This document shows, piece after piece, positions 3,177 through 63,990 of a stretch of DNA of 64,000 nt. The notes beneath the pieces were generated by a model. It searched no databases. It was not told the DNA's origin and worked only from the letters and a program-made list of their open reading frames with translations. A program made the translations under genes and the position numbers. Origin of the DNA: an uncultured Anaerolineae bacterium. GTDB lineage: Bacteria; Chloroflexota; Anaerolineae; VGOG01. The DNA lies in contig CAYMKL010000014.1 in the NCBI GenBank assembly GCA_964390805.1, positions 706 through 64,705 of the forward strand. Reading direction: 5' to 3'. Positions within the stretch are counted from its first letter, which is position 1. Every line of letters starts with the position of its first letter.

Positions 3177-6100
3177 ATGCGAGAACGACGCAAAATCACC
3201 AATCTAGTACTGACCCTGGCGGCAGTGGGCCTGGGGTTCTTCGCCCAGAGCCGCTTTCGAACGGACGCCATTCGCGATGTCTTGATCCTCTACCTCGTGG
3301 CGGTTGTGCTCCTGGTCTATGCCAACCGCAGTCGAAGCTCAAAGTCCAAAGCTCGAAGCTCAAAGACCGACGCGGAGGACTCCCTGACCCTTCGACAAGC
3401 TCAGGATACCACGACACGGCTGGGGATCTCGACACGCCAGTTGGGCTGGGGCCCTTCGACCATAAGCGGAGCGACGCTCAGGGCAGGCCTGGCGTTGCTG
3501 GCCCTGGCTGGGGTCTGCATGCTTCTCTCGCTGCGTCTCTTCGGGCGTGGTGCTCCCACCACCCGCGCCTGGATCCTCTACCTGGCCAGCATTGCCCTCT
3601 TCGTAGCAGCCTTCTGGGCCATGGAATCCACCCCGAAGCAGTGGAACCTCCGACAACTTCTGTCATTCGACCCTTCGGCTATACTCAGGGCAGGCGGAAT
3701 TAAGACACTGGCTCGACTCTGGCCTCCTAAGATACAGACCGTTATCTTGATAGCGATCCTCATTGTCGCTGCTGTTGTGCGCCTCTACAACCTGGACTCC
3801 CTCCCCTTCGGCGTATGGTATGACGAGGCTGACAATGGCTTATGGGCGATTAGGATCATGGAGGATAGCAGTTATCGTCCCATCTACGTGCAGTCCACGA
3901 ACCTGCCAGCTCATTTCCTTTACCTCGTTGTTCTCTCATTCAAGCTCTTCGGTGTCAATGTATTGGCCATCCGCCTGATCACCGCCGGCTTAGGTGTATT
4001 GACAGTTGTTGCCGTCTATCTTCTGGTCGGGGAGATTCTCGATCATCGCCTGGCGCTTGTGGCGGCCTTCCTCTTGGCGATCTCCCGCTGGGATGTGAAC
4101 TTCAGTCGGTTGGGAATGCACGGAGTGAGCACCCCCCTCTTCACTGCCCTGGCTGCCTATTATCTTATCAAAGCGCTGCGCACCGAGCGGCATCTGGACT
4201 TTGCCTGGGGAGGTGTAGCTTTAGGCCTGGGACTTTGCTTCTATGCTCCTTTCCGTCTCTTCCCCTTTGTCATTGGGCTGTTCCTGGTCCACAAGTCAAT
4301 TGTCGAAAGGGGCTTCGTGAGGCGCTATTATCTGGGCATTCTGGTCTTCGTCTTAGCGGCTCTTCTGGTCTTTGCGCCGGTAGGTCAGTTCGCCTGGCAG
4401 CACCCCAAGACCTTCTTTGATCGCACCAGCGTCACCTCGATATTCAAGGATAAGACTCGCTCCCAGGCCATCGAAGCAGTGCGCCAGAGTGCCAAGCAGC
4501 ATCTCCTGATGTTCAACTATCGCGGAGATCCCAATGGCCGCCACAACCTGCCCGGCAAGCCGATGCTGGACTTTGCCACCTCTGCCCTCTTTGTCCTGGG
4601 TTTGGGCTACAGCCTATCCCGTTGGCGCCAGCCCAAATACTGGCTGCTAGCATTCTGGCTCTTGGTGATGCTGTGCGGGGGGATCCTCTCCCTGGAGTTC
4701 GAGGCTCCCCAATCCCTGCGAGCCATCGGCACCCTGCCCGCGGCCTACGTCCTGGCTTGTGTCCCCCTGTACCTAATCGTCACGGAATGGGATAAGTCAG
4801 TGGGGCGCTGGTCCTGGCTGCCAACTGCTGCCTGCTGCTTGCTGTTAACCCATATCGGCTGGAAGAACATGCACACCTACTTCCAGGTGCAGGCCAAAGA
4901 CTTCGCTGTCTGGAACGCTTTCTCCACCGCCGAGACCCTCACCGCCCGCCGCATGGCCGAAATGGGCCCTGATTACGACTTCCACGTCATTTCCCTCTAT
5001 CATAACCATCCTGTCCTGCGCTTTCTGGCCAGGAACATAACCCAGTACAAGCGCCTGGAGACCAACGCCACGATGCCCCTGCGGGAGAGCGGGGAGCGGG
5101 AGGCGGTGCTCTTCTTTGATCCTGAGAGGCGTCCCCTGTTCCTGGAGGCCAGGCGATACTATCCTGGGGGCACCTTTGAGGAGTTTCAACCTCCCCATGG
5201 CGGCCCCGCTGTGCTATACTCTTGCCAATTGACGCCTGGGCAGATCAAGGACATCCAGGGATTAGTGGGCCGTTATTACCAGGGAAGCGAGGGGGAAGGG
5301 AAGCCCATCCTGGAAAGCAAAGATGCCCAGCTTAGCTTCGACTGGGAAACCGAGCCGCCCTTGCCAGGGCCCTTCAGTGCCCGCTGGGAGGGAATACTCT
5401 ACGTCCCGCGATATGGACCCTATAACCTGGGCTTGGTGGCCCCTGCCGCAGGCCAGGTCTACCTGGATGAGAACGTCCTGCTAGAAGAGCCTGGCGAGGC
5501 CAAGCTTCTCCTGGCCAAAGGCAACCATGCCCTGCGAGTGGAAGCAGAAGACGGGGAAGGACGGGTGGATCTCTACTGGCAGCCACCGGGAGAGCCACCT
5601 AATCCGATTCCTCAACAGTTCCTGTATACCGCCCCGCCGGTGACCAACAACGGCCTCTTGGGCCGCTACTACCGGGGCCTGGATTGGGCGGGAGAGCCAG
5701 CCCTGGAACAGATTGACCCCTCCCTGGCTCTCTATTTTCACGTCACTCTGCTGAGTAGACCCTACACCGTAGAATGGACAGGCAAACTAGAAGCCCCTAC
5801 CGCTGGGAGCTACGGCTTCGGACTGGAGTCCATTGACGATTCCTGGCTCTATGTTGACGGCCAGCCGGTAGTGGAAACCCACGTGCCCAACCAGTACCGT
5901 GAGGGACAGATCAGCCTGACAGCGGGCTGGCACGACATCACCGTGCGTTATGTGGACAGGACCAACCATTCCCACATCAATCTTTATTGGAGACCCCCTG
6001 GCAGCGGGCAGCAGATCATACCCTCAGAACGGCTTCTTCCACCCCAGGGGGCTTACCCTGAACTCGTGGTGCATGCACCGACGGCTCCTCCTGTGCCCGC

Positions 6101-6938
6101 GAAACCCCAGGAGATGGCCTTGGGCCAGCCTGAGGTCTGGGGTGGGCCAGGAACAGACGAGGGGCTGTTCAACGAGCCCCGGGACATCGCCGTTGACAAG
6201 GAGGGGAACGTCTACGTGGCCGATACCGGCAACCGCCGCATCCAGAAGTTCGACAGTCAGGGTGAATTCCTCCTGACCTGGAGCGGCGAGGAGGAGAACT
6301 TCGTCGAGCCTCTGGCTGTGATCGTGACCAGTCAGGGTCAGGTATTCGTCCTCGACTCCGAGCCGGGATGGATCTATCGTTTCACGGCCGACGGCGAGCC
6401 TCTGGGGCGCTTCGGCGGGCCGGAGGCCCAGCTCTTCCATCCTCGGGGAATGGCCATTGATGCTCAGGACAACATCTACATCGCCGACACCGGAGGCTGT
6501 CGCTTAATCAAATACGATGTCCAGGGTAACCGATTGACCCAATTCGGGGAGAAGGGAAGTGGCCCCGGCCAGCTCCTGGAGCCCATTGACGTGGCCATCG
6601 GCCCGGGAGGTGACCTATACGTGACTGACGTGGCCAACCTGCGGATTCAGCACTGGGACTTCTTCGGCCGCTATCAGGGTGAATGGGCCGTCTCCCCGGC
6701 CAGCGCCTACAACGGTCCTCACCTGGCCCTGGCTGCTGACGGCAGCCTCTTCGTCACTACCCCTGAGCAGCACGAAGTGCGGCGCTATTCCCGCGGGGGC
6801 GAGCTTCTGGGCCAATGGGGTGGTCCGGAGCAGTTCCGCATCCCCGTGGGACTCACCGTGGATGAATCGGGCAACCTGTACGTGGCCGATACCTTGAACC
6901 ACCGCGTTCAGAAGCTCGAGAGCAGGACACTTGAGTGA
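3177..6938 (+). CDS. GT-C (ArnT/PMT family 39/83-like) membrane glycosyltransferase-like protein fused to two PA14 domains and C-terminal NHL repeats
   Basis: Open frame from 3123 (TTG inside repeat), ATG 3177 more plausible; YDEADNG acidic GT-C loop motif; PA14-like blocks about 5255-5640 and 5650-6040 (GLVGRYYQG..., GLLGRYYRG...WLYVDGQ); NHL repeats 6125-6935 (YVADTGNRRIQKFD, YVADTLNHRVQKL); stop overlaps next gene. Confidence 0.8.
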   Translation: MRERRKITNLVLTLAAVGLGFFAQSRFRTDAIRDVLILYLVAVVLLVYANRSRSSKSKARSSKTDAEDSLTLRQAQDTTTRLGISTRQLGWGPSTISGATLRAGLALLALAGVCMLLSLRLFGRGAPTTRAWILYLASIALFVAAFWAMESTPKQWNLRQLLSFDPSAILRAGGIKTLARLWPPKIQTVILIAILIVAAVVRLYNLDSLPFGVWYDEADNGLWAIRIMEDSSYRPIYVQSTNLPAHFLYLVVLSFKLFGVNVLAIRLITAGLGVLTVVAVYLLVGEILDHRLALVAAFLLAISRWDVNFSRLGMHGVSTPLFTALAAYYLIKALRTERHLDFAWGGVALGLGLCFYAPFRLFPFVIGLFLVHKSIVERGFVRRYYLGILVFVLAALLVFAPVGQFAWQHPKTFFDRTSVTSIFKDKTRSQAIEAVRQSAKQHLLMFNYRGDPNGRHNLPGKPMLDFATSALFVLGLGYSLSRWRQPKYWLLAFWLLVMLCGGILSLEFEAPQSLRAIGTLPAAYVLACVPLYLIVTEWDKSVGRWSWLPTAACCLLLTHIGWKNMHTYFQVQAKDFAVWNAFSTAETLTARRMAEMGPDYDFHVISLYHNHPVLRFLARNITQYKRLETNATMPLRESGEREAVLFFDPERRPLFLEARRYYPGGTFEEFQPPHGGPAVLYSCQLTPGQIKDIQGLVGRYYQGSEGEGKPILESKDAQLSFDWETEPPLPGPFSARWEGILYVPRYGPYNLGLVAPAAGQVYLDENVLLEEPGEAKLLLAKGNHALRVEAEDGEGRVDLYWQPPGEPPNPIPQQFLYTAPPVTNNGLLGRYYRGLDWAGEPALEQIDPSLALYFHVTLLSRPYTVEWTGKLEAPTAGSYGFGLESIDDSWLYVDGQPVVETHVPNQYREGQISLTAGWHDITVRYVDRTNHSHINLYWRPPGSGQQIIPSERLLPPQGAYPELVVHAPTAPPVPAKPQEMALGQPEVWGGPGTDEGLFNEPRDIAVDKEGNVYVADTGNRRIQKFDSQGEFLLTWSGEEENFVEPLAVIVTSQGQVFVLDSEPGWIYRFTADGEPLGRFGGPEAQLFHPRGMAIDAQDNIYIADTGGCRLIKYDVQGNRLTQFGEKGSGPGQLLEPIDVAIGPGGDLYVTDVANLRIQHWDFFGRYQGEWAVSPASAYNGPHLALAADGSLFVTTPEQHEVRRYSRGGELLGQWGGPEQFRIPVGLTVDESGNLYVADTLNHRVQKLESRTLE
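3331..3370. repeat. heptanucleotide tandem array (CGAAGCT/CAAAGTC) in-frame in N-terminus of ORF2
   Basis: gtcgaagctcaaagtccaaagctcgaagctcaaagaccga encodes RSSKSKARSSKTD. Confidence 0.6.
3383..3408. repeat. PEPVEG/LRQAQD element copy (CCCTTCGACAAGCTCAGGA)
   Basis: cccttcgacaagctcagga encodes LTLRQAQD in ORF2. Confidence 0.6.
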
Positions 6939-6942
6939 AAGA

Positions 6943-9561: not shown

Positions 9562-9798
9562 GCGACACCGACGCCAGGGGTGCAGCAACCCGTGGCCCTT
9601 GCCACCCCGCTGCCGGTAGAGACCCCCGTTGGTGAACTGGGCACTGGCCAGTTCATCCTCCAGTGGGGTAACCAGGGTTCCGCTGCGGGGCAGTTTGAGG
9701 AGCCGGCGGAGGTAGCAGTGGATGTGGAGGGCAACGTCTACGTGGCCGACCTGGGCAACAAGCGGGTGCAGAAGTTCGAAAGCAAGAGATTACAATGA
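9562..9798 (+). pseudogene. detached single NHL repeat in frame with ORF3 (truncated tail; ATG at 9580 would give a 72-aa ORF)
   Basis: Same frame as 6931-9561, separated only by TAG; encodes ...QWGNQGSAAGQFEEPAEVAVDVEGNVYVADLGNKRVQKFE; stop overlaps ATG of next gene (ATGA). Confidence 0.4.
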
Positions 9799-21433: not shown

Positions 21434-24400
21434 ATGACCAATCCGGTATTGATCTTGGGCGGGAGCATTGGTGGCCTGCAGGCTGCTCTTGATCTAGCCA
21501 ACTCAGGGCTAGAAGTATGCCTGGTAGAGAGATCGCCCTTTCTGTGTCCTGAGCCTGTCGAAGGGCTTGAGGGTGATGTTGCAACGCCCTCGCACCTTCT
21601 GGCAAGCAAGTTCCTGGAGGCAGTTAAACACCCAAACATCCAGGTGTTCACCAATGCTGAGGTGACGCCCCCCCTTCATCCCCCCCAAAGCTGGGGGGGA
21701 AAAGCGGGAGGGCGGGGCGATTTCCAGATCGAGCTGCAGCAGCACCCCCGCTACGTGGACATGGCCAAGTGCACGGCTTGCGGAGAGTGCGTCCCCGTCT
21801 GTCCCGTGACGATACAGCGCCCCAGCGTCGTAGCGCCCCAGCGTCCAAGCGAGCAGCGCGTAGACGCCAAGACGCTTGGACGCTTCGACGCTGATCGACC
21901 CATCTACAAGCCCGATAACGCTGTGCCGAGCATTTTCGCCATCGAAAAGCGCGAGCCAGCGCCCTGCAAAGTAGCCTGCCCAGCCGGCATCCACGTCCAG
22001 GGCTACGTGGCCCTCATCGCCCAGGGCAAATCCGCCGAAGCCCTGGCCCTGATCCGCGAAGCCATCCCCTTCCCAGGCATCTGCGGCCGCGTCTGCCACC
22101 ACCCCTGCGAGGATGCCTGTCGGCGGGCCGAGCACGACCAGCCAATTGCCATCCAATACCTCAAGCGCTTTGTAGCAGATTGGGAAAAGTCCAACCTCCA
22201 ACCCCCAACCTCCAACCTCCAATGTCCAATATCCAATATCCAATATCCAACCAAAGTTGCCATCGTCGGCAGCGGCCCCGCCGGCCTCACTGCCGCCTAC
22301 TTTTTGGCCCGCGATGGCTATCCTGTCACCGTCTTCGAAGCCCTGCCTGTAGCTGGTGGCATGATGGCGGTGGGTATCCCCGCGTATCGCTTGCCCAGAG
22401 ATGTCCTCCAAAGCGAGATCGAGGCCATCAAGGATTTGGGGGTGGAGATCCGCACCAACACCGTCGTCGGCCCGAACGGTGATTTGTCTTTGGATGACCT
22501 CAGAAGGGACTACGATGCCGTGTTCGTGGCGGTGGGCGCTCATGGCAGCCGTAAGTTGAACGTTGAAGGTGAAGATTTAGCCGGCGTGCTTCACGGGGTA
22601 GATTTCCTGCGGGAGGTGAACCTGGACCCTTCGACAGGCTCAGGGCGCGGCCGGGAGGTCACGGTCGGCCAGAAGGTGCTGGTGATCGGTGGAGGCAACG
22701 TAGCCATTGATTCGGCCACGGTAGCCAGGCGATTGGGAGCACAGCAAGTCACCATACTCTACCGTCGTTCCCGCGAGGAGATGCCCGCCAATTCATGGGA
22801 GATCGAGGAGGCTGAAGAAGAGGACGTCGCCTTTCAATTTCTGACGACGCCGACCAGGGTGTTGGGCGAGAATGGACGGGTGACCGGGTTGGAATGTCTG
22901 CACATGGAGCTGGGCGAGCCCGACGAGAGCGGGCGAAGACGGCCCATGCCCCTCCCCGGTTCGGAGTTCGCGGTTGAGGCGGATACGGTTATTGTGGCCA
23001 TTGGCCAGGTGTTGGATATTGGATATTGGATATTGGAGGCCTGCCCTGAGCCTGGCCTAAGGGTTGGAAATTGGATCGTCGCGGATCCTGTGACTCTGCA
23101 GACGAATCTGGAGGGCGTTTTCGCTGGCGGCGATGCGGTGACGGGGCCGGCTACGGTCATCGAGGCCATCGCCGCGGGGAAGCGGGCGGCCGAGTCCATC
23201 GCGCGATACCTTAGGGGCGAAGACCTGGCCACCGGACGCAGGTTGGGGCGGCCTGACATCTCCGGCATCGAGTACTACACCCCACCCGTCGTCGAGCCAG
23301 AAGCCAGGGTGCCAATGCCCAAGCTCTCCTTAGCTGAAAGAGTGGATTTTGCCGAGACCAACCTGGGCTTCAGCGAGAGGGAGGCCATGGCCGAGGCGGA
23401 GCGCTGCCTCTCCTGCGGCGTCTGCTCTGAGTGCCTGGAGTGCGTCAAGGTCTGCGAGCCGGGAGCCATTGACCACAACGCTCAATGGGAGCGCCTGAGC
23501 CTGAACGTGGCGGCGGTGATTCTAGCGGATGGCAGGCAACAGCAGGGTGTGTATTCGATTAAGCCTGGGGACGCGTTAGAAGCCTCCGCTGCCGCTGCCA
23601 AAGTCATGGCCGACCTGGCCGCGTATCGAACATTCCCTCCAGTTCCCTCTTTCCCTTCTCTTTCCGCCCCTTCCAGAATTGGCGTGTTCGTCTGCTGCTG
23701 TGGCAACGAGATCAGCAGCGTCGTGGATGTTGATGTGGTGGTAGGCGAGATTTGCCGTTTGCCCGGCGTGGCTCTCGCTGAGAATGTTCCCTTTGCCTGC
23801 CATGAGGAGGGGACGGCGGCCATCCAGCAGGCCATCGTCGAGGAGGACCTGGATCGGGTGGTGCTGGCTGCCTGCTCTTGCTGCTCCCTCGACCAGGTCT
23901 GCGACAGTTGTACCTACCAGCGGGTGCGCTGCAAACTTCAAACGCTAAACTCTAAACTCCAAACTGGCTTCGAGTTTGTCAACATCCGCGAGCAGTGTGC
24001 CTGGGTGCACGCCGACGAGCCGCATAGAGCCACGGCCAAAGCCAGGAGCATCATCGCCTCTGCCGTAGCCAAGGCGCGTCAGGATGAAGCCAGGGCCAGG
24101 AGCACTGTTTCCCTCGACCAAAGCGTGTTGGTGATCGGGAACGGGATAGCTGGCGCGGTTTGCGCCGACGCACTACAGGCCCAAGGTTTCCAGGTTTTCC
24201 GAAGCGAGCCCCCGCCTCTGACTGTGAGAGGCTCCGTAGGCAACTTCACGGCGATCATGCCTGAATCAGGCGGGGAACGGGAGCTGAGGATCGGTGCCAT
24301 CGTCCTGGCCTCTGAGGGCGAGTTGGATATTGGAAATCCGGGAGTCTTCGCCTACGATCCGGAAGATGGGTGTGATCCGCAGGTCTGGGGTTTGGCCGTT

Positions 24401-25352: not shown

Positions 25353-26531
25353 ATGGAAGCCATTAAGCACATCATCAACAACACCAAAGCCTATTATTGC
25401 CTGGAGTGCGGCAAGTGCACTGCGATTTGTCCCATCTCGCGCCGGGAAGCTACCTACTCGCCTCGCCTGACGGTGGAGAGGGCCTTGTGGGGCGAAGGAG
25501 AGGAGCTATTGACCGATGCGCTGCTCTGGTCTTGCCTCACTTGCCAGCAATGCTCGACGCGCTGCCCCTCGGCTGTTCATTACGTGGAGTTCATCCGTGA
25601 CATGCGAGCTTTGGCGCGCGGGGAGGGTGAGGAGGGGCTCTGTTCGCACGGCGAAGCGATCCAGACCTGGATGCGGATGATGGCTTCGCCCGAGTTGAAG
25701 CAAAACCGCTTGGAGTGGCTCGATGAGGATCTAAAGGTTTCTGCCGACTCCGACACCGTCTACTTCGTCGGCTGCCTGCCGTATTACGACGTTCTTTTCA
25801 ACAAGATCGGCGCCCAGGGTGTGGAGATTGCCCAAAGCGCCGTCAGGGTGCTCAACCGATTGGGCATCAAGCCCATCATCTTGGAGAACGAGCGCTGCTG
25901 CGGCCACGACCTTCTGTGGGAGGGCGATGTCGCCAACTTCCGCAATCTGGCCGAACCGAACATCGCGATGCTCCAGGCGACAGGGGCCAAGCGCATCGTC
26001 ACCACCTGCCCCGAGTGCGCTCGCACACTAAAGGTTGACTACCCCGCCCACGTAGGCGACCTGGGGATGGAGGTAGTGCACATTTCACAGCTTCTGGCGG
26101 ATTGGAAGTTTGAAGTTGGAACTTCCCCCCCAAAGCCTGCCCTGAGCAAGGTCGAAGGGTTGGGGGGGATTGAGGGGGGGCTTAAAGTCACCTATCACGA
26201 TCCCTGTCGCCTGGGGCGGCACCTGGGCGTATACGAGGAACCGCGCCAGGTCATGAGTGTCCTGGGCCTGGAGTTGGTAGAGATGGAGCACAGCGGCAAG
26301 AACGCCCTGTGCTGCGGCACCAGTTGTTGGACCAATTGCGGGGCCGTCAACAAGCAGATCCAGGTGGACCGCCTGCGTGAAGCCCAGGCCACCGGTGCCG
26401 AGTTATTGGTTACTGCCTGCGCCAAGTGCCAGATCCATTTCAAATGCGCTCTGGACGATGCAAGAGTCAGTAACGAGATAGGGATTGAGATACGCGATTT
26501 GGTCACTTTGGTGGACGAAGCATTGGCTTAG
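25353..26531 (+). CDS. HdrC-HdrB-like fusion (2x4Fe-4S ferredoxin domain + two CCG cysteine-rich domains)
   Basis: 392 aa; CLECGKCTAICP and CLTCQQCSTRCP; CCGHDLLW and ...CCGTSCW...CAKC CCG-domain motifs. Confidence 0.8.
   Translation: MEAIKHIINNTKAYYCLECGKCTAICPISRREATYSPRLTVERALWGEGEELLTDALLWSCLTCQQCSTRCPSAVHYVEFIRDMRALARGEGEEGLCSHGEAIQTWMRMMASPELKQNRLEWLDEDLKVSADSDTVYFVGCLPYYDVLFNKIGAQGVEIAQSAVRVLNRLGIKPIILENERCCGHDLLWEGDVANFRNLAEPNIAMLQATGAKRIVTTCPECARTLKVDYPAHVGDLGMEVVHISQLLADWKFEVGTSPPKPALSKVEGLGGIEGGLKVTYHDPCRLGRHLGVYEEPRQVMSVLGLELVEMEHSGKNALCCGTSCWTNCGAVNKQIQVDRLREAQATGAELLVTACAKCQIHFKCALDDARVSNEIGIEIRDLVTLVDEALA
26097..26187. repeat. compound repeat: TTGGAAG heptamers + C7/G7 element carrying a nested PEPVEG element
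   Basis: ttggaagtttgaagttggaacttCCCCCCCAAAGcctgccctgagcaaggtcgaagggttGGGGGGGattgagGGGGGGG encodes WKFEVGTSPPKPALSKVEGLGGIEGGLKV in-frame in hdrCB-like gene. Confidence 0.7.
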
Positions 26532-26608
26532 TTTGGAAGTTGGACGTTGGAAGTTGGATGCTGGATGTTGGCCTTCAAATCTCTGACTTCCAACCTCTAA
26601 TCTCCAAC
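26532..26608. repeat. inverted heptamer arrays (TTGGAAG x5 ... TTCCAAC/CTCCAAC) intergenic hairpin
   Basis: ttggaagttggacgttggaagttggatgctggatgttgg...cttccaacctctaatctccaaca. Confidence 0.65.
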
Positions 26609-30757: not shown

Positions 30758-33700
30758 TCACCGCGTACCGATCACCAGCAAATCGAACGGGCCGACCGAG
30801 CGGATGTTCCCGGCCCGGTCCAATGCCTCTACCTGCAAGGTGTACAGGCCAGCCGTCTTCGGCCTGGGCGTGTAGCTCCACGTCGAACCGCCCCGATCCG
30901 CGACGTGCCAGAAGGAGTCACCCTCGGGCGTGTCCAGACGAACGTAGACCTCGCTCACGCCGCCGCCGTCGCTGACCGTGCCGACCAGCACCGGCGGGGG
31001 CGCCGTCTCGGTCGCCTTGTCCGTATCCGTGACCGGCTGGTACGCATCCAGCAGGATTTCGCTGATATGGGTGATGACGGCCACTGCTGGCGGGACGGTG
31101 TCCACCTGATAGGTGCGGCTCAGCGGCACCGTCGAGCGGTTGCCCACCGCGTCGAGGCCGTAGAAGGCGATGGTCTGGTACTCGCCGTCCGCGTCCTGCA
31201 CCGTCGCCGGGGCGTAGGTCCAGGTGCCGGTGGGCGTCGTACCCGGGCGCACGTCCACAGGCCAGCAGGTTGGTTCGTCCGGAGCGACTGAAGTCGCTAC
31301 TACGGTGCTCTGCCGGCCCCTGTTGCTTCCCTTCATCTCCAGCCCTTCGGCCTCGCTCAGGACAAGTGGCAGGTAGATGGTGTAAGGATACCGCCTACGC
31401 GCCGGACTGACGCAGACCTCCAGCCCGCTGGCCTGCCGGTCGTCGTGCACCTGGCCCGTGAAGAGGTGCTCGCCGAGGCCCAGCACCGTGTCAACCAGCG
31501 CCGCGTCCACGTCGGCGTCGAGGGTGACGGTGGGCGGGGTGGTGTCCACGATCAGCGTCAGCCAGTCCGTCCAACTGCTGGTGTGGCCCAAATCGTCGGT
31601 GGCCTGGGCGCGCAGCGCGAACTGGTCGCCGTCGTTGGCTGCACCCACGTCCCAGAGGCACGACCACTGGCCGTCCTCGTGGGTGGCGTCGGGGCAGGCG
31701 ATGGTGACCGGCGAGCCACCTGGCAGTGCCTGCGCTTCCAGCGTGACGATGGGCACGCCAGAGGGGTCGTGGACGATGCCGTGCACGGCGTTGGCGTAGG
31801 GTCGGATATAGGTTGCCGGTGCTGTAATCGTCAGGCTGATGGGCGCGGCGCTGTCCACGTCGTGCTGCACCCAGATCCAGTCGAAGGTGCCATGGGTGCC
31901 ATCGGCGACGCTGGCCATCACCTCGGCCGAATCGTCGTCCAGGTCGCTCTCCACGATGCCGCTGAAGCCGAGGGTGGCCGTGATGCCTGCGCTCACGTCG
32001 CCCAGGCTCAGCACCAGCGTGTCGCTTCCGGCGAAGTGCAGCGCGCCGCGCGCGGTGGCAGTGACGCGTACGTCGGGGGCAACCTCCGTTCCCTCGTTGG
32101 CATAGCGGACGGTGTAGTTGATGACCTGCCCGTCGTGGACAGGTTCGGGGTCAACGTCGACTGGCAGGACCAGGTCCACGATGGAGTCCAGGTCGGCGTC
32201 GAGGAACTGGTCGGGCGTCAGCAGGCTGTACAGGTCGTGCTCCAGGAAGCCCAACTCGACGCCGGGCGGGTCGGCCACGATGTCGACGTGCACGTCGGCG
32301 TCGGTGAACTGGCCCTCGGCAGGGCAGACTCCCGCTCCCAGCGACGCCCACTCGTACTGCTGGGTGAGGGTGAAGTGCTGCGTCGTGAGGACCGGGCCGG
32401 GGGCGTCAATGACGCGCTCGCTGTTGAGAGGGTTCTTGTCCGGCATAGCGGCCCACAGCCGCAGCCCGTCCTCCTCGCTGGCCAGGGCGACCAGGTCGAG
32501 GGACGTAGCCGCCGGGTCGGTGATGCCCAACAGGTCGAACGGCAGGTAGACGTCGGTGTGGGGCAGTAAGTGGGCGGTGCGCTGTCCTGAGCCTGTCGAA
32601 GGATCGAACTCGTAGTATTGGGGTGGGAGAGGTGCGTCCTCGATCCACTCGTCCCCATCCCAGCGCATCAGCGCGACGGCATCGGCGTCCTCTATCCAGA
32701 GCATGTAGTCGGCCTCCAGTTGGCGGCCGTTTTGGGCCGGCAGACCGATGACGGTCACTTCGGCTGAGCTCAGTGCAGGATTGGTCATCGTAGCGGTGTA
32801 GGGGTTGAAGGCCGTCGTCGCGCCACCGGGTGCACCGGTGTCGAAGTAGACGAAGATGTCGCCATCGCCAGCCCAGTCGGCGCCGCCCCAGGCGAGTCGC
32901 AGGGCCTCGTCGTTCCAGGTCAGGTAGAGCTCCTGGACTTCATTGAGGGCCGCGCCGGTGTGAGCGTTGCGCAGCACTTCACGGTTGACGCCGATCTGAG
33001 AGCAGCCGCTATCCATCCAGCCGTGATAGTTGCCCCCACCCCCGGCCCCTCCCCCAACCCTGGGAGAGGGGAGGATGTAGTCAGGCGTGGTAGGCGTGTC
33101 TGCATAGATGGGTCCCAGGGTGTGCCAGCGTTGGTTGCCGTGCACGTCCTGGGCGACGACGTGGGCATAGAGCGCCTGGGCTTCGCCAGCCTGCTGCTCG
33201 TGGTGGCGGTCTGTGGCCAGAGCGTACGTGGTGAGCGCGGCCAGGTCGGGCGTGGGGCTCTCGGTCCAACCGGCGTAGTAACGACCTAGGTCATCGCTGC
33301 TGCTGGCGGTCCACTCGAGGATGAGTGTGGGGCCGAGGACGTCGCGGATGGTATGGCCGGATGTGAGCACCGTGCGCCTGCCCAGGCCGTTGATGTAAGC
33401 CAGCGTAACGGTGACGGGCGCGGGCTTCACCAGGTCCACGGTGACGGTCTCGGTGACCTGCGCGGTGCGCCCGGCCACGTCGGTGGCGCGGGCGGTGACG
33501 ACGTAGGCCACGCCGTCGGGCTCGCTGCCCAGGTTCCAGGTGTAGCGCCAGGCGCCATCGTGGAGGGAAGCGTCGTTCCAGGCGTCCGAAGTGGTTACCT
33601 GTACCCGCTCTACGCCCCCGGTGTCGGTGACGAGGCCGGTGAGGGCCACGCGCCCCAGGGAGAGGCGATGGGTGGTGGTCAGCACGGTTGGCTCGACGGA

Positions 33701-36700
33701 TACCCACGGCGGCTGCGTGTCCACGATGACGGTGTCTGGGCGCGGGTCGGCCTGCACGCGGCCGGCCCAGTCGGAGGCGACAGCCAACAGCGTGTGTGGC
33801 CCCTCATCTGTAAGCGTAAGCGACGGAACCCAGGTGGTGCTCCAGAGCGTGTCGGTGATGGCGCCGTCGGGCCAGGTGGCGGCGTCCAGGAACGCGCCGT
33901 CCACGGTGACGGTGATGGTGTGCAGGGAGTCCACCGCGTAGGCGCCCACGGTCACACTGACGGGCTCGGTGCTGGTCAGCACGCTCTCGTGGGTGGGGGT
34001 GAGGACGGCGGCGTCCAGCAGTGCGTCCTGCTGGGCCAGCGCCAGGAGCAGGGTGCCAGCCGTTTTCGTGGTGCAGCGACCATGGATGTCGCAGGCTGTG
34101 ACCTTGGGGAACGGAGGCGGATCCGGGTGCCCAGGGACGGTGCAGGAGGGCGTCAGTTGGTAGAGCTGCGTGGCGTCGCTGGTCCAGGTGCGCCACCAGT
34201 CCGTGTCGAAGTAGTGACGGTCAGCGGCCTGCACTGAGCAGGGGCCACATTCAAAGCCATCCTCGACCAGATTGAAGTCCTTGGCCCAACAATCATAGGT
34301 GGTCTCGGCACTGGCGCCTGCGCCACGGAGGGTGACAGTGATGGCGACGCGGGGGGCGAGAGTATCAATCTCTCCGCGCCAGTGGTTCCAGGTGGATTGA
34401 TTGTCGTTGCGGTTGTCGAAGACGTCGTTGCCGCGCAGGTCAATCTGGTAGATGCCGTCCAGGTCGGCCGGGATGGGGTGGCTCCAGCTCGAGGTGGTGA
34501 CACCCTTGCCCGACTGGGCCAGTGCGGTATCCTCCCAATCCGGCTCCGTTACAGCGTGCGAAGCTAAGCCATCGGCGGGGGTGAAGGCGATCTCCAGCCC
34601 ATCCAGCCCTATAGCAATGTAGGTGGGGTCCATCACCGCGCCGCTCAGGGTCACTGTCTGAGTGATGGTGGTCGTTGAGGGGTCCGGGTAGGTCAACTCG
34701 GCGACCGGGGCGGTGTGGTCCAGCAGGATGAGGATGCCTGGGTAGTCCTTCTCCGGCGTGCGATTGCCCACCTCGTCGGTGGCGCGGGTGATGAAGACGT
34801 AGTCACCGGTGGGATTGGCCACGGCCTCGGTGTCGTCGTTGAAGATGGGGAGGACGTAGTCAATGGCCCAGGCCCTGCCCTGAGCTTGTCGAAGGGTATC
34901 GCCGTCCAGTGTGGCTTCCTGCCAACCGTCGCCCGATATGACCTCTGCGTCCAGGGGATCAGGGTCGGTCAGGAGCACCTCAACAGACCGGACACCGCTG
35001 CCCGGCTCTGAGCCGGCCATCGGGTCGCTGACGGTGCCATGCAGCGAGACGGTCCAGCGGTTCTGGGCGGTGAGCGTGGCAGTGACGATGGTGAAGTTGA
35101 CGATGTCGGTGTCCAGTTGTGGCGGGGAGCTGTCGAGGATGACGTCGGTGCCGGGGCCGGGTGTCTCGGTGTGGCCGACGACGTCCACGGCGCGGGTGTG
35201 CAGGGTGTGGCGGCCGTCGGCGTACCTGTCCACGCGCCAGCCATAGGCCCAGGATTCGTGGCCTGTGGCCGCCTCCCAGGGGTCGTTGTCTACGCGGACC
35301 TCGACGCGGTCTATGCTGGAGGTGGGGTCGTGGGCGTCGCCGCCGATGATGAGCGTGCCGGTGGCGGAGATGTACTGGCCGTGACTGAGGGAGGTGAGGG
35401 TGGAGGTGGGCCAGTCGGCGTCAATGAGCACGGGGGCGGCCTCGTCCAGGCTGATGTCGCCCAGCCAGGGCAGCACCTCGCGCAGGTAGAGGCGGTGCAG
35501 GAAGATATACCTGAATTGCCCCCACTGCCACCACGGTGCGACATTCGTCGTGACGGCGCAGTTGTGGTCATCACACGCCAGTGACATGCCGCGGGGCACT
35601 AGCTCGGGGTACATGGTTTCGTACGTTCCCCGACCGGAGTACCGGCTCCAATGCACAGCGTACGATTGTCCAGAGGCTCTGACGCTACCATTGGCCGCCA
35701 AAGCCTGATAAGCCACACTGCTGGGGGAGTCCCACCAGTCAGGGCCGTGCTCCCACATCGCTAACCAGCCTTTGTGTTGGGGGTCGTAAGCCACCCGCGG
35801 GTAGTAGAGCTCGCGGTCGCTACCCTTGGTGCCGATGGTGAACGCGCTCCCTACGCTGGAATCCTGCACGAAGTGACCACGTATCTTTTCTCCCTCGTAG
35901 CGGTAGACCACCAGCGCCTTGTCGGTGTTGGGGTCGTAGGCCACCTGGGGCAACTCTTCCATGCTATTTGTGTAGGCGATCTTGCCGCAACTGTCACTGA
36001 CGTAGTGGCCGTTGCCGTCCAGGTAGGCGTACCACACGTCGAAGTCGGCACTGCTGAAGTGATTCTCCCAGACGGCGACGTAGTTGCCTCCGACGTAGGC
36101 CAGATCCACGTAGCGATCCTCTCTGACACCTTGCGCTCCACGGCTATCCAGCCGCTCCTCATGGCTGTCGACGTCGCCGTCGTTGGTCACGATCCGGGTC
36201 TTGATCTCCCAGTCATCGTGCAGCCGCTGCCAGCCGACAAGGAAGTCGGAGCCGTTGGTGGCGACGGAGGGTTCTTGCTCGTGGTCATGGCTCCTGACGA
36301 TGGAGAAGGACGACTTCACCAGTTGCAGATTTGGCCCAACGATGGCGGCGTAGATGTCGAAGTCGTCGGAGTGCTCCTCTGCCCACACCACCAGGCACCG
36401 ACCGTTGTTGGCGCAGGCGATGGCGGGTGGATGGGCGGCCTTGTCATAGTCGCCGTCATCCACGTGTAGGGAGGCACCGTCGAGATTGTCGCCGGCCTGA
36501 TAGACGACGATGCGGCCCGTGACCTCGTTGTCGTCCTCGTCTGTGGAGTCGGCCTCCAGCGCGGCCACCACGTAGTCGCCGCTCCAGCCCGACGCCGGGG
36601 CAATGGCTGAATACCAGGGGTACTTGCCACTGGCTGCCTCTCGATGGCTGTCCTGCCGCGGGTCCCAGGTCCAGGTGGACTCCACACTGCCGGCGTGCAA

Positions 36701-54630: not shown

Positions 54631-54650
54631 GGTAAACTCCTTTCGCACTC

Positions 54651-55286
54651 CTATTTCCCCGCTAAGACATGCTCCAACCGCAATTCAGCCCCCGGGGGGA
54701 TACCGTAGCTCTGCGGCGAGCGGTGGCCAGCCAACTCCGTGTCTTCCCACCACAGGCGGAGCTCGCTGGCTGGAAGGCCAGTCTTGGCCGCCAGGTCGGC
54801 CAGAAGTCGGTCCAGCGTGGCATCGGGCGCCACTTCCACAGCCAGCGTCTGGCCATCGGGTGTGTGGATGGTCAGTGACAACCCGGTAACGACGGAACCT
54901 GCAATCTCACTCCCCTGGCCCCAGGGGTGGAGGAGCATCCCTCCCACCACCAGGACCACGGCCGCTACCGCCAGCGCTGACGCCGCCTGTACAGGTGTCA
55001 CCGAGGTCGAGAGCCACTCGATCAGTCGCTGCCAGAGGGAGAAGCGGGCCAGCGGTACAGGCAATCGCAGCGTCCGGCCAAGGAGCGCTGGCCGTTCCTG
55101 GGGGGCCACGATCTCGACCTGGACGCCAGGCGGCAGTTCGACACCCAGACGGGCTAGGGTGCCGGCTGGATCGAGCCGGAGCTGCTGCGCCAGGCCGGGG
55201 TCCGTCCGGGCCCGCCGGACGATGGTTCCAATCCTGGCCACCATCTCAGTGTTTCCTTCAGTCCGGTCTGGTGATTGGTACATCAT
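54651..55286 (-). CDS. small membrane protein: NHLP-like N-terminal domain, one TM helix, C-terminal ubiquitin-like (beta-grasp) domain; translationally coupled to giant gene B
   Basis: 211 aa; DPGLAQQLRLDPAGTLARLGVELPPGVQVEIV resembles NHLP/Nif11-type leader domains; ASALAVAAVVLVVGGMLL TM; LTIHTPDGQTLAVEVAPDATLDRLLADLAAKTGLPASELRLWWEDTELAGHRSPQSYGIPPGAELRLE aligns to ubiquitin/YukD pattern; stop TAG 20 nt before giant B ATG. Confidence 0.55.
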   Translation of the reverse strand: MMYQSPDRTEGNTEMVARIGTIVRRARTDPGLAQQLRLDPAGTLARLGVELPPGVQVEIVAPQERPALLGRTLRLPVPLARFSLWQRLIEWLSTSVTPVQAASALAVAAVVLVVGGMLLHPWGQGSEIAGSVVTGLSLTIHTPDGQTLAVEVAPDATLDRLLADLAAKTGLPASELRLWWEDTELAGHRSPQSYGIPPGAELRLEHVLAGK

Positions 55287-55295
55287 GATATCTAC

Positions 55296-58389: not shown

Positions 58390-58409
58390 AGGCGTTTCCT
58401 CTTCTCTTT

Positions 58410-59180: not shown

Positions 59181-59206
59181 GAACACGGATCCCTTCGACA
59201 AGCTCA
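59181..59206. repeat. PEPVEG/LRQAQD element copy, intergenic
   Basis: cccttcgacaagctcaggacaagtgg. Confidence 0.6.
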
Positions 59207-59348
59207 GGACAAGTGGCGGGATTAACGGATCAGATAATTGCTACTGAAGAGCAATCCGCAAATCCTGCGCATCCGTGTTCTAAACCCGCGACAGCCTCAG
59301 CAGACCTCGCATTAACCGCCCGAAGTGCCCCACTCTTCGTCCCCCTCT

Positions 59349-60041: not shown

Positions 60042-61892
60042 CTACTCCTTTGCCTGCAGCGGCTCTTGCTTCACCCACAGGATCAAGTTATCGGTTTGCA
60101 CCGGCGTTGAGGCTCGGCGGTAGAACAGCCAACGCATCAGGTTGGACCCTGAGAGGCCCTGGGGATTCCAAGAGGACGCCAGCGCAAAATCCTGCCCGCT
60201 GTACTGGGCCCCCAGGGTCGGTTCCTGCTGGCCAGCCGGAGCGATGACCACCGGAGTATCTATGGAAGAGCTGAGCTGGGCGACGAAACTGACGTTTTCG
60301 AAATCGCGCAGGTACCAGGCCAAAGCAGGCCCCGCGCCCTGATGCACCGTCATAGGAATAGCACTGGGCTTGCCTTCTCTGCTGGACACAACTTCCAGGG
60401 TCTCCAGCAAATCGAAGATGCCACGGGAGGTTGGAGAAGCAACCATGATCTCGCGGGGGTCACTGACCCGCCGATAGTTCAAGTAACAACTGACGCTCAC
60501 GGTCAGGGTAATCAGAACGAGCAACAAGACCAGCCCTCCCGCCCGCAAGGCTGGCCTTGGGCCGAAGGAGATCCAACTAAGAACGAGCAAGCCCAGCAAA
60601 ACGAAACCGCCAGCCAGAGCCAGATACAGATAATCGCGACGGCCGGAAGTAACATGAGCCCCCAACTGCAGACCCAGATGCACGACGACAGCGCACGCCA
60701 CCGCCGCGAACAAACCTTCCTGCACCCAGGAAGCTTTCGCCGCCAGCTCTTCGAGCAGACGACCGATGAACGCGCCCGCCAGCAAAGCCAATGGCAACAC
60801 AATCAGCAAGACATCGCCCGGCCCCCGTCCGCCAGCCACGACGTAGATCAATAACGCCATCGCCGACCAATAGGCCAGGAAAAGGGAGAAGAGATCGCGT
60901 CGCCTCAGCAGATAGACCACCGCCGCCAGGCCGAAGACGAGGATCAGCGGCTCGTAGATGAGCAGCAACTGGAGATGGTAGTACCACGGCTGCCCTGTCC
61001 TGAGCGTCGCTCCGCTTACGGTCGAAGGGCCCCCAACCTGCGGTTGGAAAGCGGACAGCCAACCAGAGAACAGGTCTATGCCGTCCTGCAAGCCCGACAG
61101 GTGAAGCAAGAAGCCGGTGCAAACCAGTACGAAGATAAGGATGAGCCAGGCTGCGCAATCCCTCAGCAAGCCTGCTTGCCATAGGCCGTTTTGCCCACGC
61201 GCTGCCTGCCAGGCGGCGGAAAACCTCGCGTCGGAAATCCGCTGCCAGTACTCGCTGGAACCTGAGAATCTGTTGGCCAGAGCGAGCACCAGCCCGAAGG
61301 TGACGACGGTGAAGAGAAAGGTGTAGGTCCCTGCGCCCGCGCTCAAGGCCAGGCCCAGGGCCGCTGTCACCAGGTATAGATACTTCGACTGTCTCTGATC
61401 GAGGTAGCCGAACAGCCCCCAGGTCATGGCCAGAGCGCAGGCCGCGACGATGACCTCTCCCCCCAGATAACGGGAGAAGAAGAGGACCGAGGGTGAGAGC
61501 GCCAGGAGGAGCGAGGCCGCCAGAGCGCCCATCCGCCCCAGGCGTTGGCGCAGGAAGTAAGGCCCAATCGCCAGCAACGCTCCGCCGAGGGCCGGCACCA
61601 GCCGGGCCAGAAAGTCGTTGGCCCCGAACAGAGCAAAGAGGAACATGTTGCTGGTGAAGAGGATAGGGCTGGATTGTGCCAGGGCCGAATCCTGGGGCAA
61701 TCCTTGCGCCGAACGCCAGGCCGCCAATGCCTGGGCCGCTTCGCCCGCTTGCATGGGCCGACCGTCCAGCTTGTAGAGCCGCAGGCCCACTGCAATCAGA
61801 GCGACGATGAAATAGAGCGCCAACTCCACCGTCAGTGACGACGGCTTGGCAGTTTGTCTCGTTCGTTCTCTAGTACGTTTCGCTACAGTCAT
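60042..61892 (-). CDS. GT-C-fold glycosyltransferase-like polytopic membrane protein (PMT_2/TIGR03663-like), paralog of N-terminal domain of gene 82-3087
   Basis: 616 aa; FLARLVPALGGALLAIGPYFLRQRLGRMGALAASLLLALSPSVLFFSRYL parallels ORF1 TARIVPALFGVILVALPYLFRKWLGRTGALITSLLFLISPSLLFYSRYI. Confidence 0.72.
   Translation of the reverse strand: MTVAKRTRERTRQTAKPSSLTVELALYFIVALIAVGLRLYKLDGRPMQAGEAAQALAAWRSAQGLPQDSALAQSSPILFTSNMFLFALFGANDFLARLVPALGGALLAIGPYFLRQRLGRMGALAASLLLALSPSVLFFSRYLGGEVIVAACALAMTWGLFGYLDQRQSKYLYLVTAALGLALSAGAGTYTFLFTVVTFGLVLALANRFSGSSEYWQRISDARFSAAWQAARGQNGLWQAGLLRDCAAWLILIFVLVCTGFLLHLSGLQDGIDLFSGWLSAFQPQVGGPSTVSGATLRTGQPWYYHLQLLLIYEPLILVFGLAAVVYLLRRRDLFSLFLAYWSAMALLIYVVAGGRGPGDVLLIVLPLALLAGAFIGRLLEELAAKASWVQEGLFAAVACAVVVHLGLQLGAHVTSGRRDYLYLALAGGFVLLGLLVLSWISFGPRPALRAGGLVLLLVLITLTVSVSCYLNYRRVSDPREIMVASPTSRGIFDLLETLEVVSSREGKPSAIPMTVHQGAGPALAWYLRDFENVSFVAQLSSSIDTPVVIAPAGQQEPTLGAQYSGQDFALASSWNPQGLSGSNLMRWLFYRRASTPVQTDNLILWVKQEPLQAKE
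60990..61029. repeat. extended PEPVEG/LRQAQD element copy in-frame
   Basis: ctgccctgtcctgagcgtcgctccgcttacggtcgaaggg. Confidence 0.5.
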
Positions 61893-61919
61893 CCCCTCAT
61901 TCCTTCCTTAGGCCCCGCT

Positions 61920-61960
61920 ACTCGTTGCCTCGTTCCTCATTGCCTCGTCCCTCATCCCCT
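61920..61960. repeat. heptamer tandem array (CTCGTTG/CCTCATT) intergenic
   Basis: ctcgttgcctcgttcctcattgcctcgtccctcatccccta. Confidence 0.55.
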
Positions 61961-63990
61961 ACGGCCGCCGTTCATAGATGACCACGTTCCCCTGCTGGAA
62001 CGCCACATCCATGAAGCGCTCGAACTTGGCCAGGGCGGCCGGGCTATACTTGCCTCGCTCCAGGGAGCCCACGTAGACATAGGTTATATCATACTTTTCC
62101 AATAGCGTCAAGACGTGCTGGGTATCCAGGCTGTTGTAGATAGCATTTATGTCAGGCTCGCGGCGGCCCGGCTCCTCATAGCTTCCTCGCCACTGTAACT
62201 CGTGGCCGCCCCAACCCAGCAGCGTGGGCAGCCCCGTGCGGCTGGATACGCGCGCGTACTCGGTGAAGGAGCCGCCCGTGACCTCCAAAATGACCGACGT
62301 GTCCAGCACGTGTTGGTTGAGCCACTCGACGGCGGCGTACTCGTCGGGGGAATATTGGCGCACGTAGGCCAGGCCGTCCAAGGTTGGTTGGTGGGCAAAG
62401 CCGCCGGCCTTGTCGAATCCCGCAGCCAGCGGGTAGACCATGCCCATGGCGAAAAGCACCGCGAAGCCCGCCAGGAACAATAGCCGCCCCAATCCCCCCG
62501 CCCTTTCGATGATGTAGTACACGCCATAGGCACTGGCCAGGGCCAGCAGCACCCAGGCCTGATAGTAGAACTTGAACACGGTGTTCATGCGAGTGCCGAA
62601 GGTATCCCGCAAGTACACGAACTCTACGCCGAGGGTAAGCACCAGGCCAGTGAAAATTATGAGCATCACGAACAGCGTGCTCGGCTCGGCAATTCTCCCC
62701 GCGTCCAAAGCTGCTCTAAGGGGATTGTGTGCAACCGCGGTTGCCTCCCGCTTTTGGCCTGGATCCGGCGCTTGTCTTGAACTCTGTCGAAGGGATCCAG
62801 GCTGAGCAGAATTCGATCCGCTGATTCGCAATCCTCCCCACAGCAAAGCAACAATCCAGGCGATCAGCAGGGCCAGGAAGAGCCAGGTGCAGGGGTTGCC
62901 AAGCCGGACGGTGATGAACATCTTGAACAACGAGGGCAAATCGGCCCCGCCGATCTGCTGGCGGATCCTCTCGTTCTCCAGAATGCTTCGCAGAAAGGCC
63001 TGCCCCGGGGCGGTGAGCATGAGCAGAGTGATTGAGCCCAGGACGGCCAGAGGTGGCAGAAGAATGGTCCAAAACAGAGCGTTCAAGCCGCTACTCACCA
63101 GCCTCTTGCTCTCAACCTCAGCCCTCAACCGTCTCGTCACCAGCGCTCCGAAAGCGATGATCACAAACAAGAACGGCCCGAAGAAGATCAGGTACTGGTG
63201 CAACCTGGTGGGATTGAAAACGTGGGGTAGGATACCCCCGGCCTGTGACTGGAAGCCAACGTAGAAGGGCAGATAGAGAACACCCCCCAGAAGTCCCAAG
63301 CCAACGACCGTGTAAGCCACGTCTCTCACCAAAGCCCAGTTTACTTTGCCATAATGTCCGTAGCGGTGCAACCCGTAGGCCATCGCCACCACGAACAGGT
63401 AGATGGGAAAGTCCCAGGTGTTGAGGAAGCCGAGGCTGCCCAGGCAGAGGGCGTAGATGATTGGATGTTGGAGGGTGGAGGTTGGAAGTTGGAAGTTGGA
63501 GATTAGAGATTGGATATTGGAGATTGGAAGTTTGTTTTTTGATTTTTGATTTTTGATTTTGGATTTTGGGACCTCTTGCCTAAGTACATTCAGCGCCAGA
63601 GCTAGTGCCAGCAGCACAAAAGGCAATGCCAGAACGTGGGGGTGCATGTCGCCTAGCATGAAGCTGAAGAAGGGGAACTCGTCAATGACCTCCATGGTGT
63701 TGCCCAGCAGGTCCTTGTCGTGGATGACGCGGGAGGCGCGCCACCACCACCATCCGCCGCCAAGATCAAACCACCGCCCGGTGACCCGCCCATTGCTCAC
63801 CAGCTCTTTTATGTCAAGCCAATTCCAGAAACCGGCTGAGCCGAGCCCCTTGGCGTGGAGCACCTCCAAGATCCCCTCCAGATTGCCGAGGACGGCGACG
63901 AATACAGGGCCGAGCAGGGGAACGAGGTAACGAATCAACGAGTCACCGAGTCTCCCCTGCTCCCCTGCCCCCTTGCTCCCCTGCTCCTGT
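61959..63990 (-). CDS. DUF2298 / TIGR03662 (Chlor_Arch_YYY)-like large polytopic membrane protein; 5' end probably beyond window edge
   Basis: Frame remains open to position 63990 (TTG at 63938 is the only candidate start inside window); many TM helices; the TIGR03662/TIGR03663 pair is a known co-occurring set in Chloroflexi/archaea. Confidence 0.65.
62770..62793. repeat. PEPVEG/LRQAQD element copy in-frame
   Basis: cttgtcttgaactctgtcgaaggg. Confidence 0.5.
63461..63570. repeat. long compound heptamer array (TTGGAAG/TTGGAGA/TTTTTGA) in-frame in DUF2298-like gene
   Basis: ttggatgttggagggtggaggttggaagttggaagttggagattagagattggatattggagattggaagtttgttttttgatttttgatttttgattttggattttggg encodes (minus) KSKIKNQKSKNKLPISNIQSLISNFQLPTSTLQHP. 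Confidence 0.7.
63949..63982. repeat. octamer tandem array (CCCCTGCT) at window edge
   Basis: ctcccctgctcccctgcccccttgctcccctgctcc. Confidence 0.5.

Follow-up and report, generated by a model that had tools for sequence, protein, structure and literature searches.

A 24-nucleotide unit dispersed in genes of an uncultured Anaerolineae bacterium as a putative very small insertion module

The stretch of DNA analysed in this work (64 kb of contig CAYMKL010000014.1 from an uncultured Anaerolineae bacterium, hereafter the window) contains 13 copies of a short repeated sequence. The common form is 24 nucleotides (nt) long, and a derivative with 12 extra central bases reaches 36 nt. These copies probably represent a very small non-coding insertion module that is moved in trans, and this element appears to rank among the smallest known mobile DNA elements. 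Every copy within a coding sequence that is open to comparison is an insertion relative to homologues, and the inserted length is 24 or 36 nt wherever the boundaries are readable. Copies come and go over the time in which species and strains diverge. The comparison material consisted of solved structures, orthologues of 72-84% identity, and syntenic contigs.

Anatomy of the unit and its insertion into genes

When the copies are oriented alike, the short unit reads CCTGY-CCTGAGC-(3-4 variable bases)-TCGAAGGG, 24 nt in total, of which the lead (CCTGY) takes up 5-6 nt. The 36-nt form carries a conserved 12-nt central addition (CCTGAGC-GTCGCTCCGCTTAYG-GTCGAAGGG) and includes the quasi-palindrome GAGCG-T-CGCTC. 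Two long forms are present in the window (3452 and 60994), and another one, of 35-36 nt, is found in the relative L124, where it occupies the same position as the short copy 22627. Variants with a 5-nt centre occur at sites 23040, 26136, and 31343, and copies 59191 and 31343 have a longer 5' extension, GCCACTTGT, in common. The two ends of the unit share only CC...GG, and terminal inverted repeats are lacking.

Copies were counted by a strict structural scan (CCTGAGC followed by CGAAGGG after 4-5 or 16-18 nt, allowing no more than one mismatch), which replaced a looser regular expression yielding 31 matches over a background of 22. The strict scan gave 13 matches in the window, compared with 0.3 in Markov shuffles, while the core CCTGAGCCTGTCGAAGGG, with up to three mismatches, was found six times against 0.08 expected from shuffles. 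A preliminary description of this DNA had listed 11 sites of the motif. Each of them holds a family member, the one placed at 60990 being a long form and the one at 62770 a degenerate copy, but the list was incomplete, as the copies at 3452-3487 and 3671-3694 had been missed (Table 1).

Table 1. Copies of the unit and other small repeats in the window.
Feature	Positions	Strand	Context and reading
Short copy, 24 nt, TGGTATCCTGAGCTTGTCGAAGGG	3388..3411	-	PMT_2/PA14/NHL gene 3123-6938; antisense reading TLRQAQD
Long copy, 36 nt, CCTGCCCTGAGCGTCGCTCCGCTTATGGTCGAAGGG	3452..3487	-	Gene 3123-6938; reading GPSTISGATLRA; newly found
Short copy, 24 nt, CCTGCCCTGAGTATAGCCGAAGGG	3671..3694	-	Gene 3123-6938; within a 16-residue (48-nt) insertion; newly found
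Short copy, site 1	21542..21565	+	Fer4_20/Pyr_redox_2 gene 21434-24697; reading CPEPVEG
Short copy, site 2, CCCTTCGACAGGCTCAGGGCGCGG on the + strand	22627..22650	-	Gene 21434-24697; reading DPSTGSGR; exact 24-nt insertion
Short copy, site 3, CCTGCCCTGAGCCTGGCCTAAGGG	23040..23063	+	Gene 21434-24697; between TTGGANN heptamers; reading ACPEPGLR
Short copy, CCTGCCCTGAGCAAGGTCGAAGGG	26136..26159	+	HdrD-like CCG gene 25353-26531; C7/G7 palindrome loop; reading ALSKVEG
Short copy, CTTGTCCTGAGCGAGGCCGAAGGG	31343..31366	-	Giant Ig-like surface protein gene 30758-41695(-); sense
Short copy, one mismatch (...GAAGGA)	32580..32603	+	Giant gene 30758-41695(-); antisense; reading PSTGSG
Short copy	34873..34896	+	Giant gene 30758-41695(-); antisense; reading TLRQAQG
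Short copy, ACTTGTCCTGAGCTTGTCGAAGGG	59191..59214	-	Sole intergenic copy
Long copy, 36 nt	60994..61029	+	Agl23-like/TIGR03663 gene 60042-61892(-); reading GPSTVSGATLRT
Degenerate copy, CTTGTCTTGAACTCTGTCGAAGGG, flanks CCTGGATCC/GGATCCAGG	62771..62794	+	DUF2298 gene, inside a 37-residue lineage-specific insertion
Heptamer arrays	22190-22252, 23012-23037, 26102-26121, 26533-26571, 27952-27982, 40512-40540, 42029-42059, 63461-63569, and others		
C7/G7 palindromes, 20 nt	21680-21699, 30014-30033, 41191-41210, 39657-39684; split copy 26125-26168		

Twelve of the 13 copies lie inside open reading frames (ORFs) with Pfam-supported domains, in agreement with the earlier remark that the motif is mostly in-frame in coding sequences. 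The hosts are a PMT_2/PA14/NHL protein, a Fer4_20/Pyr_redox_2/Fer4 oxidoreductase, an HdrD-like CCG protein, a 3645-residue Ig-like surface protein, an Agl23-like TIGR03663 protein, and a DUF2298 protein. Since about 95% of the window is coding, this proportion equals the random expectation, and genes are neither avoided nor preferred. Four of the intragenic copies are in sense and eight in antisense orientation, and copy orientation is mixed within one replication arm. The short consensus is free of stop codons in five of its six frames (PALSLSKG, CPELVEG, TLRQAQGR, PFDKLRA, and PSTSSGQ), while the sixth holds a TGA. The intragenic copies use both strands and five frames, and none is read in the TGA-containing one; ALSKVEG, VLSEAEG, and PSTxSGATLR are additional readings. 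The translations given previously (PEPVEG, LRQAQD/G, and PSTGSG) were correct.

In the oxidoreductase gene 21434-24697, copy 22627 coincides precisely with a gap of eight residues in the solved homologues 9bov_A and 9n5u_A. Among orthologues of 72-79% identity, each of the three copies of this gene is present in a few and missing from about 20. Alignment of five syntenic contigs (L121-L125) at the DNA level reveals 24-nt gaps at 22627-22650 and 23040-23063, and gaps of 21-24 nt at 21542-21565. Site 1 is carried by the window, L125, and L123, and is missing from L121, L122, and L124 as well as from the roughly 20 orthologues. Site 2 is missing from L121, L123, and L125 and is occupied by a short copy in L122 and by the long form in L124, while site 3 is carried by L125 and L123 and corresponds to a 24-nt gap in L121, L122, and L124.

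In the Agl23-like gene 60042-61892, the 12-residue insertion GPSTVSGATLRT is missing from 51 of the 54 aligned homologues, and the remaining three bear at the same site an eight-residue form, GPSTMLRT, corresponding to the 24-nt form. Gene 3123-6938, compared with an orthologue of 82% identity (L247:15020-18697), shows clean insertions of 12, 16, and about 10 residues at its three copies: the stretch of copy 3388 is missing from the orthologue, and copy 3452 is an exact 12-residue insertion between RQLGW and GLALLALAG. The orthologue itself bears an eight-residue PSTSSGHR insertion of its own elsewhere. At a still shorter evolutionary distance, L248 and L249, Logan contigs that contain the Agl23-like gene and stem from separate runs, agree at 98.8% identity across 1821 nt and are distinguished at the element by one 24-nt presence/absence difference.

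Simple neighbour-joining distance trees, in which internal branches are short, were built for two of these genes. Carriers among the Agl23-like genes fall into two clades, each including an empty member, and carriers of sites 1, 2, and 3 of the oxidoreductase gene are mutually incongruent. Such scattering requires several gains and/or precise losses, and both gain and loss seem to occur. An assembly artefact was ruled out, as independent assemblies show the same orthologous insertions.

It could be argued that the peptides recur as conserved portions of ancient protein domains, or as chance or low-complexity matches, a reading that the recurrence of the peptides, and nothing more, would favor. 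However, the same DNA is read in five frames and on two strands, it interrupts unrelated domains in unrelated genes, it is missing from the solved homologues and from most orthologues, and it exceeds the shuffled expectation as given above (13 versus 0.3), so that we hold this explanation to be almost certainly wrong. The mobile-repeat origin proposed in the preliminary description is upheld at the DNA level by the use of several frames and both strands and by the orthologues and solved homologues that are without copies at the same positions.

Two further observations concern the surrounding genes. In the relative GCA_030611885.1 (L247), the DUF2298 and Agl23-like genes adjoin PMT/PA14/NHL glycosyltransferase-like genes, whereas in the window (1-13016 and 60042-64000) the corresponding genes are about 50 kb apart and on opposite strands. 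Directly downstream of the giant surface-protein genes 30758-41695 and 41863-54648 (Ig-like, Kelch, FG-GAP, DUF11) lies a 211-residue ORF (54651-55286, minus strand) with a C-terminal ubiquitin-family domain (PF00240, E 5e-8).

Landing sites, junctions, and neighbouring small repeats

Several copies have interrupted other small repeats, or copies of the unit itself. Positions 26125-26168 consist of CCCCCCCAAAG, a 24-mer, and TTGGGGGGG, that is, a C7/G7 palindrome interrupted by exactly 24 nt; in its undivided form, CCCCCCCAAAGTTGGGGGGG, the palindrome is found at 30014-30033, and it is intact also at 21680-21699. A copy nested in a C7/G7 element, giving the order of insertion, had already been described, and this description was accurate. 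In L123, the site-1 copy holds a second 24-mer of opposite orientation at its centre (CCTGAGCTT^GTCGAAGGG), and elsewhere in the same contig a 24-mer of the same orientation is nested at the equivalent position, the insertion point being CCTGAGCYT^GTCGAAGGG in both cases; these pairs are located at L123:10100-10170 and L123:15454-15495. The site 3 element sits between whole units of a TTGGANN heptamer array. Its frame varies among orthologues with the number of upstream heptamers (ACPEP... versus KPVLGVAEG, the frame in L123 being different), which argues that the encoded peptide is irrelevant.

The six best-defined events leave a junction ambiguity of 4, 2, 1, 2, 1, and 1 nt, with no fixed target duplication at any of these six junctions. 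Two other ways of delimiting the unit were considered. A core of 18-19 nt with a target duplication of 5-6 bp was rejected because the flanks show no duplication, and circularly permuted units were rejected because all events fit one register given the junction ambiguity, with L249 better taken as a secondary deletion. When all loci are considered, three of 269 occurrences of the motif have a heptamer array nearby, compared with one of 960 random positions, so that the association with heptamers holds only in some lineages, namely this clade, a Chloroflexaceae metagenome-assembled genome (MAG), and a Leptolyngbyaceae MAG.

These junctions are also what a by-product of replication or repair could leave. 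According to such an explanation, template switching or microhomology patching, at forks that have stalled or at breaks, would copy a short stretch of one of the many existing copies without dedicated machinery, and selection would keep the in-frame products. It is consistent with junctions showing 1-4 nt of microhomology rather than a fixed duplication, with sites that are prone to slippage or hairpin formation (heptamer arrays, palindrome loops, and the element's own centre), and with the long-form quasi-palindrome, which is typical of fold-back synthesis. Heptamer indels of 21 nt and C7/G7 indels of 30 nt are also present in the same genes, as are further short repeats inserted in frame, and no transposase gene accompanies the element in the window or recurrently at the genomic loci listed. 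Nevertheless, unguided switching predicts variable lengths and registers, while all measurable short events are 24 nt long and in one register, and the 18-nt core common to many phyla and viruses would be left unexplained. We therefore consider this explanation possible, yet rather unlikely.

The neighbouring repeats deserve description in their own right. Many 7-nt tandem arrays are present in the window (TCCAAYC, TTGGATA, TTGGAAG, TGAAACG, ATTCCGA, TTGGAGG, and others; Table 1), and several of them are intragenic and translated, e.g., as SNLQPPTSNLQ or LDIGYWILE. Orthologues vary in these arrays in 21-nt steps (3 x 7), and relatives bear different heptamers at the same place. The arrays resemble the STRR heptamer repeats of filamentous cyanobacteria. 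A second tiny repeat family consists of the 20-nt palindrome CCCCCCCAAAG(C/T)TGGGGGGG, at times with another C7 block ahead of it; it is likewise found in-frame in genes, where it encodes PPxxPP...GG peptides, and it accounts for a 30-nt presence/absence difference among relatives. Finally, a 66-nt in-frame insertion at 21815-21892 is made of 8-nt repeats (CAGCGCCC; inverted GACGCTTC), encodes RPSVVAPQRPSEQRVDAKTLGRFDAD, and is shared by no more than about half of the close orthologues.

Distribution beyond the window and comparison with known small elements

A genome collection with one genome per species was queried with the pattern CCTGAGCYTGTCGAAGGG, which was found at a minimum of 120 loci; by our own calculation, a few tens of matches are expected by chance in the whole collection. 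The figures in this and the following paragraph are among the matches listed. The titles available for 80 of these loci name about 20 bacterial groups, among them cultured Microbacterium, Microlunatus, Sphingopyxis, and Desertihabitans. The 18-nt core with family-like flanks occurs in at least 15 phyla, including Bacteroidota, Cyanobacteria, Actinomycetota, Pseudomonadota, groups of the candidate phyla radiation (CPR), Acidobacteriota, Planctomycetota, NC10, and Nitrospirota, and the core is also present in viral contigs. As this core is found in so many phyla, the motif is not a Chloroflexi marker, and the phylum inference that the preliminary description drew from it loses that support. The assignment to Chloroflexota and Anaerolineae is evidently right all the same, judged by the source names of the protein homologues (Anaerolineae, Anaerolineales, and Chloroflexota) and not by the motif.

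The flanks of the genomic occurrences are clearly non-random, with a GTTCGC-like lead in 40 of 117 classifiable cases. For half of the occurrences, an inverted partner lies no more than 150 nt away, and there are 13 perfect flanking stems of 6 bp or longer, against 3.8 expected. The inverted pairs found in other phyla fold strongly (-23 kcal/mol, z -4.8). An inverted partner accompanies 36 of 64 occurrences of the GTTCGC class and none of the 25 in the lead class CYTGY, to which the copies of this window belong. The longest stop-free stretch, used as a coding proxy, is confounded in GC-rich DNA and was applied only for contrasting subclasses.

In complete plasmids, the paired form occurs without annotation in Sphingobium (up to 18 places per replicon, with 15-18 copies per megaplasmid in one strain), Novosphingobium, Moraxella, Comamonas, and others. 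The presence of the motif in complete plasmids and in genomes of isolates makes mis-binned contigs an unlikely source of the cross-phylum matches. Dense clusters of the core were seen at some loci: the viral contig L165 holds five copies in alternating orientation (5100-5215 and 9256-9315), L009 three tandem 24-nt units, and L044 stacked CCTGAGC...TCGAAGGG halves, and L118 also belongs to the dense-core loci.

The paired form directs attention to repetitive extragenic palindromic (REP) elements and their paired REPIN arrangement. The copies could be elements of this type, and the mobilising enzyme, a RAYT-like HUH (IS200/IS605-type) single-strand transposase, would then have its gene elsewhere in the genome. 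REP/REPIN-RAYT systems, as described in PMC3116915 and PMC3733652, are likewise short, high-copy, non-coding, and without target duplication, and they can sit in small palindromes, as reported in PMC3733652 for REPs of the Chloroflexi member Thermomicrobium roseum. The inverted pairs in other phyla, which form long hairpins, and the excess of flanking stems point in the same direction. The copies in the window, however, are solo and almost all intragenic (12 of 13), lack a GTAG or CGTC tag, and form no stable hairpin; their class has no inverted partner, their junctions show no specific target tetranucleotide, and their orientation is mixed within one replication arm. Moreover, each species normally has REP sequences of its own, whereas this core is common to many phyla. 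No RAYT (Y1 HUH transposase) was found in the 64-kb window, and no recurrent neighbour family at the 120 loci listed. We regard a RAYT-driven origin as improbable.

The conservation of the core across phyla may also be ascribed to usefulness to the host rather than to mobility. The unit would then be a selected DNA or RNA site, e.g., for binding of a nucleoid or topology protein, for RNA processing, or for termination, and its paired form is similar to REP-like hairpins that have been proposed to play roles of this kind (PMC3733652). Against this, the window copies are intragenic and stand in both orientations to transcription (four sense, eight antisense), they are dispensable in close relatives, and they have no Rfam match even at permissive thresholds; we find this explanation very doubtful. 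At gathering thresholds, Rfam gave no matches in the window, and at permissive E-values five element-rich loci gave only sub-threshold matches of hairpins to miRNA models. Derivation from tRNA or 5S rRNA was rejected, as the resemblance is loose and no model matched. Full-text searches of the literature with the DNA strings and peptides of the element yielded no relevant paper.

Two other kinds of small elements share some of these features. Palindromic elements of Rickettsia also stand in-frame in unrelated housekeeping genes and are translated as extra segments tolerated by the fold, but they are about 100-150 bp long, palindromic, and confined to Rickettsia (PMC10969869), whereas the element described here is 24 or 36 nt long, roughly five times smaller, and without a significant palindrome. 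[quoted passage not shown] The MITE and REP labels mentioned in the preliminary description do not fit: the unit has no terminal inverted repeats, target duplication, or stable hairpin, and its location is not extragenic.

The closest known kind would be the small dispersed repeats (SDR1-8) of heterocyst-forming cyanobacteria, likened here by behavior and description and not by sequence. The SDRs of Elhai et al. (2008) are said to be 21-27 nt long, nested, inserted into tandem heptamer repeats, and occasionally found in genes. Both kinds are dispersed, non-coding, and of a small size class, the element in this study being 24 nt at every readable short insertion, and in both mobility is judged from presence/absence at orthologous loci. 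Both also enter palindromes: the literature citing the SDR study (PMC5861425, PMC4390886, and PMC3116915) records the precise insertion of SDR5 into the HIP1 palindrome, and the element described here enters the C7/G7 palindrome and its own centre. In that literature, SDRs are reported to be restricted to Nostocaceae, in contrast to a host in Chloroflexota and a core present in many phyla and viral contigs, and the solo unit of this window differs further in having no significant hairpin. In the citing passages of the literature that refers to the SDR study, no extension of SDRs to other phyla was mentioned.

Possible mode of movement and significance

The mechanism that we propose for an insertion module moved in trans is conditional throughout. 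As the module encodes nothing, it would have to be copied or moved by factors acting in trans. Such machinery, or a repair pathway, may use a defined 24-nt donor and insert it where DNA is transiently single-stranded, extruded, or stalled; hairpin loops and slippage-prone arrays are candidate targets, and insertion may be independent of target sequence, with 1-4 nt of microhomology at the junctions. Lengths of 24 and 36 nt correspond to whole codons, which would allow the module to persist inside genes. Selection would only filter survival, through whole codons, five stop-free frames out of six, and tolerant loops, and the encoded peptides themselves would be without function. The presence of one core in many phyla and viral contigs implies either horizontal spread or a widely shared trans-acting factor, and the uniform length, taken together with this cross-phylum core, favors a dedicated, horizontally spread factor as the best account.

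Several points weigh against an insertion module of this kind. The solo 24-mer has a stem of only 4 bp and folds no better than shuffles (-1.9 kcal/mol, z -0.46), so that it would offer little structure for recognition by an enzyme, and the readable junctions show no common target sequence. No transposase or reverse transcriptase is present among the genes of the 64-kb window. All-against-all clustering of ORFs from 240 loci gave no recurrent neighbour gene family at the 120 genomic loci listed, the top clusters among the 240 motif loci having come from one family of related viral contigs. The boundaries in L249 fit a pristine empty site less well than they fit a secondary deletion of 24 nt whose ends lie about 4 nt away from the canonical ones, and several presence/absence patterns are compatible with either gain or precise loss. 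The analysed DNA comprised the 64-kb window and about 100 kb from relatives, a survey below whole-genome scale. In phyla other than Chloroflexota, mobility is a suggestion drawn from the occurrence of the motif.

A broader interpretation, which we put forward only tentatively and regard as doubtful, is that the copies belong to a pan-prokaryotic superfamily of "nano" mobile modules, spanning at least 15 phyla and viruses and moved by a widespread trans-acting system that has so far gone unrecognised. Hairpin loops, tandem heptamers, other copies, and ORFs would serve such modules as landing sites, with no target duplication, and the candidate mover would be a defined 24-nt DNA or RNA donor employed in repair or integration. 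On this view, the SDRs of cyanobacteria and the paired REP-like "PFALSLSKG / FDKLRANG" hairpins found in Proteobacteria would be lineage-specific faces of this superfamily.

If a 24-nt sequence is truly mobile, it is much smaller than the elements whose two ends are recognised by known transposases, and another insertion chemistry or a templated repair route must exist. To our knowledge, the movement of cyanobacterial SDRs has been an open question since 2008. The same behavior in an unrelated phylum, together with a core common to many phyla and viral contigs, makes the question of movement testable. Translations of the module presumably appear in databases as spurious "hypothetical proteins" with PEPVEG, LRQAQ, or FDKLR peptides, and the modules can mislead taxonomic inference, as in the preliminary description. 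In the genes that carry them, they produce indels of eight and 12 residues in housekeeping enzymes, and they represent natural experiments on the tolerance of protein loops to insertion.

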